From a virus (taxonomy: Duplodnaviria; Caudoviricetes): 58,359 nt of DNA. Each line of letters opens with the position of its first letter. Position 1 is the stretch's first letter. Positions 14,311-22,489 of this stretch are shown piece after piece. A program made the translations under genes and the position numbers. The notes under the pieces are model-generated. The model ran no database searches, had not been told where the DNA came from, and saw only the letters and a list, made by a program, of their open reading frames with translations. The stretch covers positions 1 through 58,359 of the IMG/VR virus record IMGVR_UViG_3300017991_000124. One strand, given 5' to 3'.

Positions 14311-15906
14311 TCACAGCGGGTAAAGCGCAACCCGTCCCAGGGTCACGATGTTGGGCCCGTCGATCACGTCGCCGGGCAGGTCGGGTTCGCTCCTCGAGAT
14401 GGACGTGAGCTCCGCGTTCGGCGCCACCCCGCCCAGCGCGTCGATCACCCGGCTCACCACGAGCTGGCCTGCGATCGACGGATACTGCTCCGACGGCGGC
14501 GGGTACCGGAACGCCCGCGCCGCTCGCGCGTCGGTGTCCAGGTCCACAACCTCGCCCGGCCCCAACTCGTCGAAATAGTCCGACAGCGCGTCGGCAATGA
14601 TAGTGAGGCGATCGGTTCCAGGGGACAGGTACTGCCCGGTGGCGATGGTCATCGTGGGGGCTGCGTTCAACTTGATCGTGGCGATCGGAGAACTGAACGA
14701 CACCTCCGACACGTCCAGTTCCTCCCACGCGCTGTTGTCCTCGTCCCAGAGCATCAGGCTGGGCACGTCGTCGCCGGTCAAGGTCGCAGCCCCGCCCGGG
14801 AGGGTTACATTCGTTTGCACCGTGAACTGCGTCTGCGAAGCGACGCCGTTTACCGTGACCGCCGGGTAGCTGCTGGAGTAGGTCGGCCAGGGCGAGGTGT
14901 CGGTCCAGCCGCCGGTTGTGCCGTACCCCATGCTAAGTCGCATCACCAGGTCGGAGTCCTGCTCGTTGGGTGGCACGCAGACGACGTAGGCCCGCTGCGG
15001 GGTGACCGGGCTGTCGGGTGGCACCAGGTAATTCCGGGCAGCGATCAGGGTAGCCGGCGCCACGTCGGTGCGCGCCTCGGGGCCCAGGGTGCTGCCCCGC
15101 TTCTGGAGCACGCAGACCATCAGGGATCCCGCGTGGAACACGCAGGGATAGACGAATGCAGACTCGATCGCGTTGCTGGCCGCGCGCGCCCAGTTGACGA
15201 AGTGCGCGGCGTTCCCGCAGGCCGGGCGGTAGGCGATGAACTGCTCGATCCGCGAGGCGTACTCGGTGTCCGTTTCGACGTCGAACCCGCCGGTGAAGTC
15301 CTCGTCCACCTCGGCGTCGTCCTGTGCGCCGACCGGCTTGTTGACGCTCCATGTCAACGTGGTAGTGGCCGGGGGGTTGGTGTCCGATCCGGTGTCGATC
15401 GCCCCCATCTCCAACGCGACCTGCGCGGATCCTGCGGGAACCGTGCCCGTGACCAGCACCTGATACTGCACGCCGTTCTGATCGACGGCGACACACGCCG
15501 TCGGGTCGCCCAGGGTAGTCGATCCGGTGAACACCGTGCCCGCCGGTCCGTAGGCCACCACCGGCCCGCTGCCGCCGGTGGCCGGCAGCTTGGATCCCTG
15601 CCCCAGCCAGAGCGGCCCGTGGAAGTTCTCCAGGAACGCGGTGTTGCTCCACGCCGGCCGCAGTTGGTTTGCCAGATACCGCGCGCGCGACTGCGATGCT
15701 TGCAGCGCCAAGTCCAGGCAATCGGCTTCGATGAAGAACGCGGACCCGCGCTGGGTCACTTCGATTACCGTGTCCTCGGTGAACAGCGCGGCGGTGTCCG
15801 GGTCGATCATCACCCGCAGCGCGTTGCGCAGGTTGCTCAGAACCACATCGTCGCGGATGTCGCCCCGGCGGAACAGGATGAACTGGCGTTCGTCTGCGGT
15901 GGTCAC
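14311..15906 (-). CDS. Baseplate J-like protein (Mu gp47-like)
   Basis: FTGGFDVETDTEYASRI...PACGNAAHFVNWA motif. Confidence 0.85.
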   Translation of the reverse strand: MTTADERQFILFRRGDIRDDVVLSNLRNALRVMIDPDTAALFTEDTVIEVTQRGSAFFIEADCLDLALQASQSRARYLANQLRPAWSNTAFLENFHGPLWLGQGSKLPATGGSGPVVAYGPAGTVFTGSTTLGDPTACVAVDQNGVQYQVLVTGTVPAGSAQVALEMGAIDTGSDTNPPATTTLTWSVNKPVGAQDDAEVDEDFTGGFDVETDTEYASRIEQFIAYRPACGNAAHFVNWARAASNAIESAFVYPCVFHAGSLMVCVLQKRGSTLGPEARTDVAPATLIAARNYLVPPDSPVTPQRAYVVCVPPNEQDSDLVMRLSMGYGTTGGWTDTSPWPTYSSSYPAVTVNGVASQTQFTVQTNVTLPGGAATLTGDDVPSLMLWDEDNSAWEELDVSEVSFSSPIATIKLNAAPTMTIATGQYLSPGTDRLTIIADALSDYFDELGPGEVVDLDTDARAARAFRYPPPSEQYPSIAGQLVVSRVIDALGGVAPNAELTSISRSEPDLPGDVIDGPNIVTLGRVALYPL

Positions 15907-16355
15907 GCGCTCGCCTCCGTGATGCTCTGCGTGGACCCCTTGGGCGCGCGCAGATTGACGTACTCGACTCGGAACTGCTGGGTCTGGTTGGTGCGGTCCG
16001 CGTCGTTGAAGAACACCCCGACCAGGCGGATGTCCTTATTGCGCCGCAGGCGGGCCAGCGCAGTGTTCACCTCGCTGCGAATGTCGTCCTGCATCGAGGC
16101 GGCCATGTGGCGAATCTTGTGCAACTGCGTGCCCTCGTCCGACACCGCCGGGCCATTCCAGCGGATCAGCGACAGCGCCAGCACCACCTGCGCGTCGATG
16201 GGATCCATGCCCCGGGTCAGGCTATCCCAGTCCCTGGTCATCGGGTTCCAGATCCGCGCCTTGAGCGGCGAAGGGGATTGGAGCGGGTCGGTGGCAAAGA
16301 CCAGAGCGCCCACGGGTTGCGCGGTGGACGGCAGGGCGATGCGGATGATCGTCAT
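15903..16355 (-). CDS. Baseplate wedge/sheath initiator (gp25/Mu gp46-like)
   Basis: 150 aa immediately upstream of baseplate J; C-terminal FRVEYVNLR. Confidence 0.6.
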   Translation of the reverse strand: MTIIRIALPSTAQPVGALVFATDPLQSPSPLKARIWNPMTRDWDSLTRGMDPIDAQVVLALSLIRWNGPAVSDEGTQLHKIRHMAASMQDDIRSEVNTALARLRRNKDIRLVGVFFNDADRTNQTQQFRVEYVNLRAPKGSTQSITEASA

Positions 16356-16361
16356 GGGCCA

Positions 16362-16390
16362 ATCCTATCATCAGCCGTGACGGCGGGCAA
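16362..16390 (-). promoter_or_regulatory. Promoter TTGCCC-N17-TAGGAT, probably leaderless
   Basis: -10 followed by TGGCCC-ATG; near-identical arrangement at 27741-27769. Confidence 0.5.
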
Positions 16391-16427
16391 ACGAGACGAA
16401 CGGGGGGGGCGGGACGATGGGGCGGGG

Positions 16428-16916
16428 TTACTTCTCGGTCTTGGGCAGGGGCAGTTGCGCGCGCACCCGCTTGGATTCCACGCGCGCCGCTCCAATGACC
16501 GCCGCCGTGACCTGGGCTACATGGTCCGCACGGCGTTGGCTCTCCTCGCTCATGCGCGCCCGATCCGACGAGGTGACCACCGCGCTCCCGCGCTTCACCG
16601 CCCGTAGACCCCCGCGATATTTAGAGGATCCGTGATCTACGCGCTCGTCCGGCGACAGCACCTTGAACCCGACGCCACGCTCGACGCCTACCAGTACGTT
16701 GTACTCCCGCCAGAGCACCGACCGCCATCGATCGGTGACCGTCTTGAACCGGGTGCTCTCCCGGGGCGTTCCGATCAGTTCCGCGATCTCGGCGTAGGGG
16801 ATCACTTGCCCCTCTTCGGGCACCTGATACCGCTCGCGCAGTCGCGCCAGTTCGATGTCGGTGGGCACGCCACCGAAGTACAACCCATCATCTTTTTGCT
16901 GATCATTCATCACCAC
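16428..16916 (-). CDS. Accessory protein of the RAMP/pentamer-array cassette (possible winged-helix)
   Basis: GGAGG SD just after last hairpin; YFGGVPTD...IPYAEIAELIG...RGVGFKVL. Confidence 0.7.
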   Translation of the reverse strand: MVMNDQQKDDGLYFGGVPTDIELARLRERYQVPEEGQVIPYAEIAELIGTPRESTRFKTVTDRWRSVLWREYNVLVGVERGVGFKVLSPDERVDHGSSKYRGGLRAVKRGSAVVTSSDRARMSEESQRRADHVAQVTAAVIGAARVESKRVRAQLPLPKTEK

Positions 16917-16925
16917 CTCCGTCGG

Positions 16926-17186
16926 TTAGAAATGCACCATTGGTGCCCATGCCAAGCCCGGCCAAGCCGCGCCGCGCCGAGCCCCGCCGCGCCGGGCCCG
17001 GCCGCGCTCCTAGTTGCGCCATTGGCGCCCTTGCCTCGCCTCGCCACGCCCAGCCGTGCCACGCCCTGCCGAGCCATGCCACGCTCCGTGCTAGTTGTCC
17101 CATTGGGACCCATGCCTTGCCCCGCCCGGCCCAGCCGCGCCTTGCCCAGCATGGCCTTGCCCCGCCGGGCCAGGCCAAGCCCCGAT
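16926..17186 (-). ncRNA. Putative guide-RNA array: three (GGC-NN)n tracts of 14, 11 and 12 pentamers, each ended by a 5-bp hairpin
   Basis: Tracts 17181-17112, 17085-17031, 17008-16949; hairpins GTCCC-AAT-GGGAC, GCGCC-AAT-GGCGC, GCACC-AAT-GGTGC; AACTAG linkers. The repeat is directly visible; the RNA role is inferred. Confidence 0.7.
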
Positions 17187-17193
17187 CCATGCA

Positions 17194-17898
17194 TCAGACC
17201 TGCGTCACGGTCGCCGCGAACTTGCCGAACACCCCCGGCGACTGCTTCGAACTCGGGCGCCAGTCGCACAACCCGCAGTACGCACCGCCGAGATCGAAGA
17301 ACTCCCGCACCACCTCGATCGGCAGCTTTTTGTCGTCCAGCACCGTCAGCGATCCGCGCGCCGTCCAGTTGCGAAATCGCGGGCGCACCCGGATGTGCTT
17401 CGCGCTCTTGACCCGCGCCCGCTTCACCAGCAGGTCGTAGCCCAGCGACCGCACCAGATCGATGTGCTTGGAGAATTGCCCCTCGTCGATCAACCCGGTG
17501 ATGTCGTCCCAAAGCACGGGGCGCCCGTTGGCCTCGATCGGCCAAATCTGCTCGTTGATCAGGATGCTCGACTGGCTCAGTTTCTTGTAGGTTGTTTGCC
17601 CCTTCAAGATCTTCATCGCCCCCGCCTCGCGCAACATGGTCATGAGGTTGTCGGCGGGGATGCCGACGACCGTTCCGTCGTGGTAGACGTTGCCGAGCCA
17701 CCGCCAGGGAGGGGACCGATCGTCGCCCGCCTTGCTCTCGGTCTTGTTGTCCGCGTTCTTGGCCCACGCCTCCATCTGATCGCCCCACACCACGTTGTCC
17801 TGGTGCATGAGCAGATCCGTGCCGCCCACGTCCGCAGAGCCGACAAGGTTGTCAAGGCAGACGGGGCGATTTGATGGAACAATTGCGAAACCAGACAT
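17194..17898 (-). CDS. Stand-alone RAMP/Cas7-like protein (start uncertain)
   Basis: GTDLLMH, VGIPADNLMTMLREAG, RVRPRFRNWTARGSL and C-terminal G-rich loop GGAYCGLCDWRP...GVFGKF occur in RAMP order. Confidence 0.7.
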   Translation of the reverse strand: MSGFAIVPSNRPVCLDNLVGSADVGGTDLLMHQDNVVWGDQMEAWAKNADNKTESKAGDDRSPPWRWLGNVYHDGTVVGIPADNLMTMLREAGAMKILKGQTTYKKLSQSSILINEQIWPIEANGRPVLWDDITGLIDEGQFSKHIDLVRSLGYDLLVKRARVKSAKHIRVRPRFRNWTARGSLTVLDDKKLPIEVVREFFDLGGAYCGLCDWRPSSKQSPGVFGKFAATVTQV

Positions 17899-17913
17899 TC
17901 ACAGTCGCGTAGT

Positions 17914-18201
17914 TCAGCAACGGAATACTACCTCACAGCACGTCTTTGCCTCCCGTGCCTCGCGGATCTGCCGCACCAGTCGCTCCCGTTGTTGCGGTGT
18001 CATCTTTCTCTTTTCTGCCGCTTCCCTGCGCAGTAGCAGCATGCCAAGACGGATTGCCAGGTCTGTCTCCTCACCGGTCATGCCAAACCGCTCCTGCATC
18101 TCCGCGCGGACCTCATCGGTGAACGGGTTGGTCAGCATCAGCCGCTCCAGCGCCTTCGTGCGGCGCCGTAGTGCCTCTTGCGAACAGTTCTTTTTCCCCA
18201 T
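17914..18201 (-). CDS. Small basic hypothetical protein, first gene of the inserted cassette
   Basis: GAGGAGG SD; TATAGT -10 upstream at about 18224-18229. Confidence 0.5.
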   Translation of the reverse strand: MGKKNCSQEALRRRTKALERLMLTNPFTDEVRAEMQERFGMTGEETDLAIRLGMLLLRREAAEKRKMTPQQRERLVRQIREAREAKTCCEVVFRC

Positions 18202-18261
18202 GGCGTTTCCCCTCCTCACACATACTATACCCCTGCTACCCGCTGCCGGGTAAAAGGTATG

Positions 18262-18573
18262 CTAGAGCGGGTCGAGGGGGCAGTAGAGCGAGGGGATAGA
18301 AAACGTCGGGATCGACGGCAACGGGATCGCCGGTAGTGCGAACGCCGGCAACGGGATCGCGGGGATACCCGGTAGGCTGGGCAGCGATGGGATGGTGAAG
18401 CTCGGGATCGACGGCAACGGGATTGCCGGCAGTGCGAACGCGGGGAGGGGGATCGCGGGAATCCCTGGAAGGCTTGGCAGTGTGGGGATCGTGAAGTTCG
18501 GGATGCTCGGCAGGGGAATCGCCGGGAGCGCGAAGCTCGGTAGCGGGATCGGCGGGAAAGCGCAGTTGGTCAT
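18262..18573 (-). CDS. Proline/aliphatic periodic-repeat protein
   Basis: About 2.8 copies of a 32-aa (96-nt) unit; TAATG coupling to upstream gene. Confidence 0.6.
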   Translation of the reverse strand: MTNCAFPPIPLPSFALPAIPLPSIPNFTIPTLPSLPGIPAIPLPAFALPAIPLPSIPSFTIPSLPSLPGIPAIPLPAFALPAIPLPSIPTFSIPSLYCPLDPL

Positions 18574-19670: not shown

Positions 19671-20413
19671 CAGTCGATCCCCCGGACGCAGATCACCCGC
19701 GCGCCGATCGCGTCACCGTAGGCGAGGATTGCGGTTGTGATGTAATTGATCGTCCATCGTTGGCCCAGCACATCGGTTCGGATCGACCCGCTGCGGACAT
19801 CACCAAACCCGCACCCGTCCCCGAACGCCGCCGGCCAGTAGCAGCCGCCCGTCGGGCCGTCCCATGGCGCGCACCCGGTGCAGTCCTCCGCGTCGGCCTC
19901 GTCCAGCCACAGGGGGTCGCTCAGGGCGCACCCGTCGTCGCAGGGGGTGGCCAGCGCCCAGCGGAGCTCGTCGATAGTCGGCAGCCGCCAGCCGGATCCC
20001 AAAGCCGAGCAGTAGGCCGTAGCATCGGCGTGGTCGAGCAGCGTAGGTGCCGGGGCAGCCCAGCACCGGGCGCCGTCCTCCCAGAAGCAGTCCGCGTCCG
20101 TGTCGGTGTCGGGCCCGGGGTCACCGTCGGGCGCCCCGTCCGGCCCAGCGTCGGCGACAATTCCAGCGTCGCTATCCGTGTCGGTGTCGCCGTCCACGTC
20201 GCCGTCCGCATCCGTGTCGGTGTCGCCGTCGGCGCCCGAATCCGTGGCTGCGTCGCCAGCAGCGGCATCGCTGCCCGCGTCCTCCCCCGGGGCGGCATCC
20301 CAGGCCCCGGCATCCGTTCCGCCGTCTGGGGGCCATCCTGGGCCGTCTGACGGGTATGTCCCGTCGCACCCCGCCGCCGCCAGCACCAATAAAATCGCCA
20401 AATGTTTCATCAA
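19670..20413 (-). CDS. Lipoprotein with Asp-rich linker and DUF1566/Lcl-like domain
   Basis: Signal peptide plus lipobox (LVLAAAG-C); DTDTDADGD repeats; AYCSALGSGWRLPTIDELR; terminal VICVR. Confidence 0.75.
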   Translation of the reverse strand: MMKHLAILLVLAAAGCDGTYPSDGPGWPPDGGTDAGAWDAAPGEDAGSDAAAGDAATDSGADGDTDTDADGDVDGDTDTDSDAGIVADAGPDGAPDGDPGPDTDTDADCFWEDGARCWAAPAPTLLDHADATAYCSALGSGWRLPTIDELRWALATPCDDGCALSDPLWLDEADAEDCTGCAPWDGPTGGCYWPAAFGDGCGFGDVRSGSIRTDVLGQRWTINYITTAILAYGDAIGARVICVRGID

Positions 20414-21534
20414 CTGAGCACCCAGATCCCTTTCTTCAGCAGCGACAGGTTGGTGGCATCGCCTCCTGCCGGGTCACGCCTCAACGTAACCCCATGCACA
20501 AAGTATGCCCCCAGGGTGCCCCCGAGTACATCGGACTCGACCGCTACCACACAATCGACCCCCCAGTTGACGTTCCGGTAGCCGTCCCACCACGACAGCC
20601 CGTCCAGTTCCACGGTAATCGCGTCCTTGCCCTTGGACCGGGCGGCCAGTTCGCGCTTGATGGCGATCCGCGCCTCCTCGACGGAGCGCACCCCTTCGGC
20701 CTGCATCACGATCGGCCGATAGAACCCGGCGTCGGACACGTCCCGAACCCGGGCCATCTGGCTGACCCGCTTGCGCCCCCGGCCCTTGGGCACCTGGATC
20801 CCGGTCATCTGGATGCTGGAGGGGATGCCGGACCAGTCCTGGCCCCGGGTGATGCCCCGCACGTTGTTGCCCTGGCCCGCCGGCCCTCGGTTGGCCCGCA
20901 GGGTGTAGATCGGCGCCTGCGTGTCGTTGGGGGCGCCAACGAGGATCTTGCCGTCGGGGCTGTCCCAGTGGATCAGCCCGTGCCGGCGCAGGTGCCGGTC
21001 CGCCGCACCGTAGATGGTCTCGCCCGGCTGCACCTTGGCCTTCTGGGCGTTGACCTTCTTGAAGTCTGGCCCCGGACTCTGGCCCGTGGTGTCGCGCCCG
21101 GTCAGCAGGTTGCGGCCCAGCGCCTGGTCGTCGCCGATGAAGTCGGACGCGGTGTATCCCAGCGGTGCGTAGAGGGACAGCAGCAGATCCTTCAACGTCA
21201 TGTTCTTCTGGATGACGCCCGGGCTGGCCCCCGCGTACATGGCGTCCGCCAGCTTGGTGCGGACGGTGAACCGGACCACCGACCCCCCGGCCGCGTCCAG
21301 CGGGGCGTCGTTGAGCTCCACGCGCCCGGTGAGCCGCAGCCGGTCGTTGACGATCACCCGGTACTGCGTGCCGTGCGCCACCCGGTCGCTAATCTGACCC
21401 CAGGTGCCCGCGTTGCCCAACTCGAACGCCGCCTCGCTGGGGACCATCATGTCGTTGGTGATTTCGAAGCTGGTGAAGTTGTCCAGCGTCGGACCGCCGA
21501 CGATCTCCACCCGCGCGGTATCAGGCAGTCGCAT
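20410..21534 (-). CDS. Baseplate hub (Mu gp44-like)
   Basis: KVQPGETI...WDSPDGKILVG motif; synteny. Confidence 0.8.
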   Translation of the reverse strand: MRLPDTARVEIVGGPTLDNFTSFEITNDMMVPSEAAFELGNAGTWGQISDRVAHGTQYRVIVNDRLRLTGRVELNDAPLDAAGGSVVRFTVRTKLADAMYAGASPGVIQKNMTLKDLLLSLYAPLGYTASDFIGDDQALGRNLLTGRDTTGQSPGPDFKKVNAQKAKVQPGETIYGAADRHLRRHGLIHWDSPDGKILVGAPNDTQAPIYTLRANRGPAGQGNNVRGITRGQDWSGIPSSIQMTGIQVPKGRGRKRVSQMARVRDVSDAGFYRPIVMQAEGVRSVEEARIAIKRELAARSKGKDAITVELDGLSWWDGYRNVNWGVDCVVAVESDVLGGTLGAYFVHGVTLRRDPAGGDATNLSLLKKGIWVLS

Positions 21535-22489
21535 CGGCGAACACCCGCACCGGGGTGCCGGGCGGGATCTCCATCAGGTCGGCGATCTGCGGGTTGATCT
21601 CGATCAGCAGCGAGGCGTCCTGCTCCACGTCGGCCGCCACCAGGAAGATCGAGGTGGATACCTTGTAGCGCCGGGTCACCTGCCGGGGGAGTCCGCGTCG
21701 GGCACTCTGCCGCGACTTGCCGGCGATCTCCTTCTGGCGGTTGAGCTTGCGTTGCACGCCGGCCGAATCTGGGTCCAGCAGGATGTCGCGCCCCTCCTCG
21801 GCGGTGTTGGACCACGCCCTCACCACCCGGTCGTGCGCCCCCATCACCATCGCCGCCTGCTGCTCGTAGTCCTGCATCGTGTCGCCGGGCAGGTTGGCGA
21901 TCCCCTCCAGGTTGGCGGCCAGTTCGTTGAGATCTTGCAGGCTGCCGTCCCACATGCCCTCGGACTGCTCGGCGAACTCCGCGGCCTCGGCCAGTTCGTA
22001 GGCGTTGGCCGACACGGATGGCGCGACGAAGCTCGCCGCGTCCACGTTGTCCTCGTTGTCCTGCTTGAACACCAGGTCCACGCGCTCGCAGTCGCGCTCG
22101 GACCCCTCGGCCGACCGGTTCCAGGTCCAGGCCCGCGCACGGATGGTGCCGATGTTGGGCACGGTCAGGTCGCCCGTCTCGTGTTCTTCGAAGGCGTAGA
22201 TCAGCAGGTTGAGCACGTCCGGGTAGAGCTGCAACGAACCGTTGGTCTGCCGCAGCCCGGGCTCGGCGTTGCTATTCTCCTGCAACGAGTTCTCGAAAAT
22301 GCAGGACAGGTTGATCACCAACGCCTCGGCGCCCGTGTCGTCCAGCTTGGCCCCGTCCCGGTAGGGGCGCACCTGGTCGATGATCCGGTTGCCCCCGGTG
22401 ATGGTGATGCGCTCCACCGGGAACGCGATCTTGTTGCCCCCTACGGCCCAGGCGGCCGACGGGTACTGCTCGAAGGTGCCGCGCTGCAT
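21521..22489 (-). CDS. Mu gp43-like DNA circularisation/tube initiator protein with LysM-like end
   Basis: RPYRDGAKLDDTG N-domain; LIEINPQIADLMEIPPGTPVRV C-terminus; follows tape measure. Confidence 0.75.
   Translation of the reverse strand: MQRGTFEQYPSAAWAVGGNKIAFPVERITITGGNRIIDQVRPYRDGAKLDDTGAEALVINLSCIFENSLQENSNAEPGLRQTNGSLQLYPDVLNLLIYAFEEHETGDLTVPNIGTIRARAWTWNRSAEGSERDCERVDLVFKQDNEDNVDAASFVAPSVSANAYELAEAAEFAEQSEGMWDGSLQDLNELAANLEGIANLPGDTMQDYEQQAAMVMGAHDRVVRAWSNTAEEGRDILLDPDSAGVQRKLNRQKEIAGKSRQSARRGLPRQVTRRYKVSTSIFLVAADVEQDASLLIEINPQIADLMEIPPGTPVRVFADATA

Follow-up and report, generated by a model that had tools for sequence, protein, structure and literature searches.

The GGC-NN pentamer tracts on the minus strand of this contig are best read as part of a VIPR locus (Viral Interference Programmable Repeat). 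Its carrier is an uncultured phage, myovirus-like and probably temperate, from sediment or seawater metagenomes, and the locus would act by analogy with that of Escherichia phage SUSP1; we put the probability of this reading at about 0.93. The window, one whole IMG/VR virus contig of 58,359 bases (67% GC, estimated 72% complete), carries in order a vipr gene, three vrRNAs, and a candidate vap gene, all on the minus strand. VIPR, first described in 2026, is a DNA silencer that phages carry and that is related to CRISPR; in the accessible text of three preprints of that year, vrRNAs guide a Vipr filament to DNA (10.64898/2026.04.26.720920; 10.64898/2026.04.26.720927; 10.64898/2026.10.15.759431). 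As described there, VIPR loci are mostly phage-borne and comprise a minimal RAMP protein (Vipr), usually one vap gene, and vrRNAs of 9-16 GGY-NN units with a conserved structured tail, which co-purify with Vipr (10.64898/2026.04.26.720920). The identification came from the match of the window protein to PDB entry 36pp_D: a search for the name Vipr led from this entry to the preprints and hence to the identity of the window locus. The results obtained here are the sequence anatomy, the homology of Vipr, its RAMP fold, the covariation of the tails, the co-occurrence of arrays with vipr and vap, and the absence of self-targets. The feature is real and its decoding in the preliminary description is right in substance; a guide-code logic published only in 2026 was recovered there from raw sequence alone, and the kind of system, the code, and the structure are already described.

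Parsing of the sequence revealed three tracts between two co-oriented genes, at 17181..16949 on the minus strand. The guide tract of vrRNA 1 (17112..17181) has 14 units, 13 of them GGC-NN and the seventh TGC-NN, whereas those of vrRNA 2 (17031..17085, 11 units) and vrRNA 3 (16949..17008, 12 units) both start with an AGC-NN unit. GGC begins 34 of the 37 units, the exceptions being TGC, AGC, and AGC, and the counts of 14, 11, and 12 fall inside the published range of 9-16. With at most one mismatch, the pattern (GGCNN)5GGC matches 25 times with overlaps, in each case on the minus strand within 16946-17181, compared to none in 100 dinucleotide-preserving shuffles, and no further GGC-NN tract was found elsewhere in the 58,359-base window. 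All 37 NN pairs agree letter for letter with those given in the preliminary description, with 10, 8, and 7 distinct pairs in tracts 1, 2, and 3, respectively. Rfam cmscan of 16400-17700, with E up to 10, gave three chance-level matches only, outside the tracts, and a literature text search for 'GGCNN' returned nothing relevant among the matches listed.

The same region is spanned by a 95-aa ORF rich in W, R, G, and A (17190..16903), which runs from shortly behind the vipr stop to slightly beyond the start of the next gene, and could be taken for coding sequence or for a slippage-prone microsatellite. Two of the three frames are open because GGC-NN units can form a stop only as TAG. Conservation follows the pentamer, with GGC in all three codon phases, a pattern given by no coding constraint, and relatives punctuate their arrays with 4-nt phase shifts. 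Slippage would have no identical repeat to act on, because the NN pairs vary among units. Both candidates were rejected on the pentamer-phase conservation and the unit-to-unit NN differences, and we regard them as scarcely credible.

The period and the fixed triplet recur widely. An exact search of IMG/VR for eight GGC-NN units returned at least 139 loci, and the matches listed (139 loci) contain 324 distinct arrays, mostly of 9-13 units (range 6-83). In these listed arrays, with GGC fixed, position 5 has even base frequencies (A.27, C.26, G.23, T.25) and position 4 is purine-biased. In close relatives (Vipr 47-50% identical), GGC and the punctuation are retained, whereas the NN strings are wholly different. 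The view that the NN pairs are spacer-like and not the product of a slippage microsatellite is borne out by these observations. None of the 139 loci among the matches listed has arrays on both strands. Relative to the upstream gene, the array is on the same strand in 31 listed loci, on the opposite strand in 8, and ambiguous in 37 (n=76); for the downstream gene the corresponding numbers are 29, 5, and 34 (n=68). The family phrog_4652, to which the window Vipr belongs, accounts for 16 of the 66 ORFs examined (out of 101) just downstream of arrays, and it is encoded in 39/50 array-bearing IMG/VR contigs, in 7/8 of those at least 90% complete, and in 0/14 control genomes.

Some of the IMG/VR matches deserve separate mention. 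Unbroken GGC-NN runs of 54-83 units, compared to the published 9-16, are seen at L018 961-1665 and L053 936-2508, in contigs with a phrog_4652 match beside the runs; they could be staggered arrays, or else filament templates of exceptional length. The search pattern also picked up a perfect (GGCCC)9 microsatellite at L030 1001-1045, and since its contig (G025) has no phrog_4652 match, it is probably unrelated to VIPR. At L046, L051, L085, and L137, the ORFs directly downstream of the arrays belong to phrog_15946 (about 150 aa, function not assigned), which may be another vap family.

Each guide tract of the window is followed by a tail that begins with GG and forms a 5-bp hairpin with an AAU loop. 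In the tail of vrRNA 1 (17091..17111, minus strand), the stem pairs 17109-17105 with 17101-17097 around the loop at 17104-17102, followed by AACUAG. The tail of vrRNA 2 (17010..17030, minus strand) pairs 17028-17024 with 17020-17016 and likewise continues with AACUAG, and that of vrRNA 3 (16934..16948, minus strand) pairs 16946-16942 with 16938-16934, with the ribosome-binding site of the next gene after it. The three stems differ by compensatory changes. In an alignment of 14 tails from the window and three relatives (L174, L177, L178), all 70 cells of the five pairs are paired and three of the five pairs changed on both sides. This covariation score was reached by none of 500 shuffles, and slid registers did not come near it. 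The last NN of the 14 tails is AT, AA, GA, AG, or GT, with the first letter always a purine, and the most frequent last pairs in the 324 listed IMG/VR arrays are AG (139), AA (56), GA (27), and AT (26). The suggestion that the last NN is structural is therefore supported as far as a constraint goes, but the pair is neither fixed nor always AT or AA across arrays.

The vipr gene (17194..17898, minus strand) lies upstream of the tracts as a 234-aa ORF encoding a RAMP/Cas7-like protein; judged from relatives, its true start may lie some 14-20 codons further in. The protein matches phrog_4652 (E=6.2e-14), a family named only 'hypothetical protein' in the sources, and no Pfam family was matched. 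A profile of 33 Vipr homologues matches PDB 36pp_D, 'SUSP1 Vipr protein', over its full length (residues 1-191) with E=4.5e-41; with the single window sequence the E-value is 1.1e-3, i.e. the relation is distant. The AF2 model of the window Vipr has a pLDDT of 90.8, and its best Foldseek matches are Csm3 subunits of type III-A CRISPR complexes (6ifn_F, E=4e-4). Window residues H32, R172, D212, W213, and R214 align with SUSP1 H17, R138, D177, W178, and R179, with H32 sitting in an LLMH motif and aligned to H17 via the profile. The GDWRP G-loop and the thumb arginine are conserved in Vipr homologues, and W213, R214, and P215 are present in 22/22 clade sequences. In the 33-homologue alignment, the window Vipr is about 20% identical to the other phrog_4652 branches. 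An extra segment at 17433-17538 (Vipr residues about 121-156) is found in the window clade and absent from the other phrog_4652 branches, and SUSP1 Vipr lacks part of it; the AF2 model predicts two helices there, H131-138 and H142-151.

The identity of this neighbour bears on whether the tracts serve as guides at all. A period of 5, a fixed triplet, a same-strand intergenic position, and folding of the 301-nt stretch with the tracts that is modestly better than that of shuffles (z=-2.8) would also suit a periodic protein-binding RNA or DNA leader without a guide role, be it TRAP-like, an autoregulatory operator, or a G2N3 G-quadruplex tuning the baseplate operon. TRAP binds GAG or UAG triplets with spacers of 2-3 bases. 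Against such a leader, the neighbouring gene encodes a Vipr homologue in which the GGY-holding residues are present, a quadruplex needs no fixed C at position 3, and in relatives a change of the NN pairs alone retargets transcriptional silencing, according to the accessible text of the preprint (10.64898/2026.04.26.720920). A leader of this kind appears very improbable to us. A TRAP-like site, a G-quadruplex, an R-loop leader, and a type III toxin-antitoxin array were all dropped as candidates because the neighbour is a Vipr homologue.

On the other side of the tracts, the candidate vap gene (16428..16910, minus strand) encodes 160 aa matching phrog_5926 (E=1.2e-5). Its AF2 model (pLDDT 88.7) consists of a winged helix followed by a long helical hairpin, and the Foldseek matches are weak (E 8e-3 to 0.1) and nearly all to winged-helix DNA-binding domains, so that the predicted fold suggests that the window Vap is probably DNA-binding. 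Homologues of this vap adjoin vipr on the same strand at 26 loci in tblastn searches (18/28 genome loci, 4/4 loci of the IMG/VR clade, and 4 other IMG/VR loci). By hhalign, the candidate Vap shows a weak resemblance to the product of the gene after vipr in Pseudomonas phage LESphi2 (69% probability, E=4.5e-5). [quoted passage not shown]

Beyond IMG/VR, vipr genes of the window clade were found at 28 loci of prokaryote genome contigs, at 37-53% identity, in MAGs and isolates of many phyla; 26 of the 28 have same-strand arrays beside vipr and none has opposite-strand arrays. Relatives of the window's branch occur in MAGs of at least ten phyla. A single-protein scan of prokaryote genome contigs gave no relative of the window Vipr. 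The 28 loci, at no more than 53% identity and spread over many phyla, point to no particular host of the window phage.

Two cultured phages also have arrays just upstream of a vipr homologue, three tracts in Pseudomonas phage LESphi2 and one worn tract in Gordonia phage MakoManhole. Each of the LESphi2 tracts (vB_Pae_LESphi2, OQ594955.1; L150 2560-2880) is followed by a GGGCUG...CAGC hairpin; the tracts lie just downstream of cI, with an annotated sigma-factor gene on one side and the vipr homologue P21_9 on the other. LESphi2 is thus a case of a VIPR locus in a cultured prophage, from a clinical P. aeruginosa strain, with its proteins annotated as hypothetical only. In MakoManhole (L151 1650-1760) and near 1250 of L033, a T-arm-like hairpin with a GGTTCGACTCC loop adjoins the pentamer tract, which may be a tRNA-like processing signal for the vrRNA.

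The window genes matched in PHROG include those for the terminase, portal, protease, major head, sheath, tape measure, baseplate hub, and baseplate J proteins, a myovirus-type set, together with a serine recombinase/integrase, a ParB-methyltransferase, and a RecE-like exonuclease. Nearly all of the annotated phage genes are on the minus strand. The VIPR locus has the baseplate hub genes (22489..20413) on one side and baseplate J (15906..14311) on the other, and comes after four small genes without assigned function; in other phages, the VIPR module is near early, recombination, or lysogeny genes. No sigma-70-like promoter was found in window 16300-18400 and no terminator-like site between vipr and vap, and the locus may therefore be read with the late genes. 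PHROG annotation of the 46 further window ORFs gave no cas gene, and TRF and repeat scans of the window gave the 5-nt periodic tracts but no CRISPR array (identical direct repeats with unique spacers). At 18287-18558, 2.8 copies of a 96-nt tandem repeat (79% matches) lie inside a 103-aa minus-strand ORF (18573..18262), two genes upstream of vipr, which encodes a proline-rich IPLPS/AFALPAIPLPSIP repeat protein.

The locus is unchanged in contigs of two probable source runs and present as fragments in a third, an observation with no bearing on expression or guide turnover. When contigs of three metagenome runs were placed at 80% likeness, the summed depth rose over the tracts (window 16912-17167). 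The rise was at most about 1.7-fold in X1, and it reached about 6-fold in X3 and more than 10-fold in X5. The contigs placed at the tracts include many short foreign ones that end in other GGC-NN sequence. The depth rise and these contig ends together point to many other VIPR arrays in the same communities.

For the mode of action, we turn to the characterized members. In the accessible text of the preprints, VIPR targets are double-stranded DNA reading NN-x-NN on either strand, and the bases passed over under this 1-nt skip rule are mostly those at codon wobble positions. For SUSP1 and a Pseudomonas fulva prophage, the rule was shown by in vitro binding, by GFP repression, and by a search of pangenomes; the natural targets are satellites, prophages, and other VIPR systems (10.64898/2026.04.26.720920). 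One Vipr protomer binds each unit, with GGY sequestered by H17, D177, R138, W178, and R179, and NN base-pairs with the target with one target base flipped out, which is the structural basis of the skip rule; the SUSP1 R-loop starts at the 3' tail and extends in the 5' direction (10.64898/2026.04.26.720927). RNA expression and processing, filament formation, the 1-nt skip, and silencing come from this literature on other members only, and the expression, processing sites, activity, and targets of the window locus would follow by analogy.

Carried over to the window, the region 17181..16934 would be transcribed and cut into three vrRNAs, each with 11-14 GGC-NN units and a GG-hairpin tail. One Vipr protomer would bind each unit and sequester its GGC, the G's being held by the residues aligned with SUSP1 H17, D177, R138, and W178 and the C sitting in the pocket of the next protomer. 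The Vipr-vrRNA complex would thereby form a helical filament presenting the NN pairs, which would base-pair with a DNA strand of the form NN-x-NN-x..., skipping one base per unit. The gapped R-loop ('R-loop triplex') would then block transcription of a rival phage, satellite, or prophage, and the winged-helix Vap probably helps at the DNA. The earlier idea that one target base is skipped per NN, so that wobble positions are ignored, coincides with the rule published for SUSP1 and the P. fulva prophage in the accessible text, and would apply here by the same analogy.

We searched for targets of the three guides with a scan-and-null procedure that follows the Methods of 10.64898/2026.10.15.759431 as given in its accessible text. 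Against their own contig, with skips of 0-3, the best identities were 0.61-0.75 and never exceeded those of 200 shuffled guides. Self-matches below 80% at all these skips agree with the absence, in the accessible text of the preprint, of guides matching their own contig at 80% or more (10.64898/2026.04.26.720920). In IMG/VR, we searched with a 1-nt skip for exact 18-base seeds from the middle and the 3' end of each guide (six seeds). The middle and 3' seeds matched 4 and 0 loci for guide 1, 0 and 0 for guide 2, and 1 and 1 for guide 3, which is chance-level. Extension to the full guide gave 18/24 and 19/24 for guide 3, and, for guide 1, 19/28 at one locus and 23/28 in three contigs of one shared sequence. 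In metagenome contigs, searched with the 3' seed of guide 1 only, 26 loci were found; the best of them extended to 23/28, and the extensions as a whole followed a binomial chance model. The search pattern that had been suggested for guide 2 contains the middle seed with 0 loci, so it has no exact IMG/VR match either.

Pooled tests of guides from many homologous arrays against targets showed no enrichment at any skip, with 258 guides on 263 kb and 272 guides on 496 kb, targets too small for a fair test; this space is minute compared to the pangenomes of the preprint, and the result therefore has no bearing on the skip rule. Similarly, neither the window, scanned with 37 clade guides, nor the loci of six relatives, scanned with the window guides, gave anything above shuffles in what is an underpowered comparison.

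A single candidate target emerged, for guide 1. The match covers NN 2-12 (11 of 14 NN), an unbroken run of 22 informative bases, and falls on the final codons of phrog_2581, a virion structural gene of 163 aa located between a Neck1/tail-completion gene and a small gene preceding the tail sheath. The contigs belong to an unrelated myovirus of 57-64% GC from three metagenomes, with no real homology to the window in tblastx. From the seed-hit rate, we estimate that chance alone would yield tens of 23/28 matches in IMG/VR, compared to about 0.02-0.05 runs of 22 contiguous informative bases over the three guides under uniform base composition; the match is suggestive, and is for this reason kept as a weak candidate only. 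Three features argue against it: the two 3'-most NN, where SUSP1 R-loops start, are unmatched, the skip falls on codon position 2, and the contigs lack homology to the window. Reading the NN strings as target patterns agrees with the published rule, and the VIPR membership tests that were run favour the locus, but no target above chance was found save this weak candidate, and the three patterns stand as predictions.

These scans also have to be weighed for the possibility that the tracts give VIPR-type RNAs that are not active anti-rival guides, being worn, decoy, or host- or self-regulatory and following rules unlike those of SUSP1, such as another register or a looser 3' end. This would suit the lack of a target above chance in the scans, the departure from GGY of the first units of tracts 2 and 3 and of unit 7 of tract 1, and a sole candidate limited to NN 2-12 of guide 1, with its skip at codon position 2 and its 3'-end mismatches; satellites carry decoy-directing vrRNAs as well, in the accessible text of 10.64898/2026.10.15.759431. 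However, 34 of the 37 units are perfect GGC, the three tails are intact with compensatory changes, and vipr and vap are intact ORFs with the key residues conserved. The scans needed exact 18-base seeds and the rivals of the uncultured host were out of view, so the blank is weak evidence, and we consider the loss or change of the guide role distinctly unlikely.

Under the preferred reading of a VIPR locus acting like that of SUSP1, the window branch could further be an uncharacterised VIPR subtype for which the guide 1 match is a real target. We hold this joint proposal to be rather unlikely, and the typing in the preprint may already include the branch. The features that may define such a subtype are the GG-hairpin(AAU) tail, the two-helix insertion in Vipr, a Vap with winged helix and coiled coil, and the position in a late baseplate operon. 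If the guide 1 target were true, the branch would tolerate 3'-end mismatches and a non-wobble skip register, departing from the SUSP1 rule. The window locus in any case adds an environmental, high-GC (67%) phage member to a widespread VIPR branch; its tail is a simple hairpin, and its place among the baseplate genes is unusual. It also provides three concrete guides, the targets of which could reveal elements competing with the window phage.

Four known systems are informative for comparison. ToxIN, a type III toxin-antitoxin system, consists of tandem RNA repeats beside a small RNA-binding protein, ToxI being made of near-identical 36-nt units cut by the toxin. The likeness lies in non-coding RNA units arrayed in tandem next to a gene of about 200 aa for a protein that binds them. 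In contrast, GGC and the tail are all that the window units have in common, the protein belongs to the RAMPs and is not a ToxN-type nuclease, and Pfam, PHROG, and profile searches gave no ToxIN homology at the locus. The backbone filaments of class 1 CRISPR complexes (Cas7 family, e.g. Csm3 of type III-A) have in common with VIPR the RRM/RAMP fold, a G-rich loop, and a thumb, one protomer per fixed step of guide RNA, and bases flipped out periodically. The window differs from class 1 CRISPR in lacking cas1/cas2, any other cas gene, and a CRISPR array. The VIPR step, as given in the accessible text of the preprints, is 5 nt with 3 sequestered and 2 pairing, compared to 6 nt with 5 pairing in class 1 CRISPR, and the constant part lies inside every VIPR unit instead of in a repeat handle.

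The relatives at L160-L163 share the Vipr clade (47-50% identity), the GGC-NN units, and the vap family with the window, and resemble the staggered or punctuated vrRNA arrays mentioned in the fig. S18 legend of the preprint. They have 3 to 17 tracts, mostly end to end and separated by GGAAC or GGATC plus two bases or by an 18-nt spacer, whereas the window has three, each with a full hairpin tail; their tracts often flank vipr on both sides and follow vap.

Of the seven published VIPR types, type II includes SUSP1 and the P. fulva prophage, and the vrRNA tail of the SUSP1 clade is a pseudoknot, according to the accessible text (10.64898/2026.04.26.720920). Compared to SUSP1, the window Vipr is distant (single-sequence E=1.1e-3) and has extra residues at roughly 121-156, modelled as two helices, and the tail is GG with a 5-bp hairpin and an AAU loop instead of a pseudoknot. 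In contrast to SUSP1-type systems, the three vrRNAs of the window are all between vipr and vap, and the locus is inside the baseplate genes and not near early or lysogeny genes. The shared features are a lone homologous RAMP, GGY-NN units with a structured 3' tail, a same-strand array beside vipr, a small accessory gene for a predicted DNA-binding protein, carriage by a phage, and guides without a self-target.
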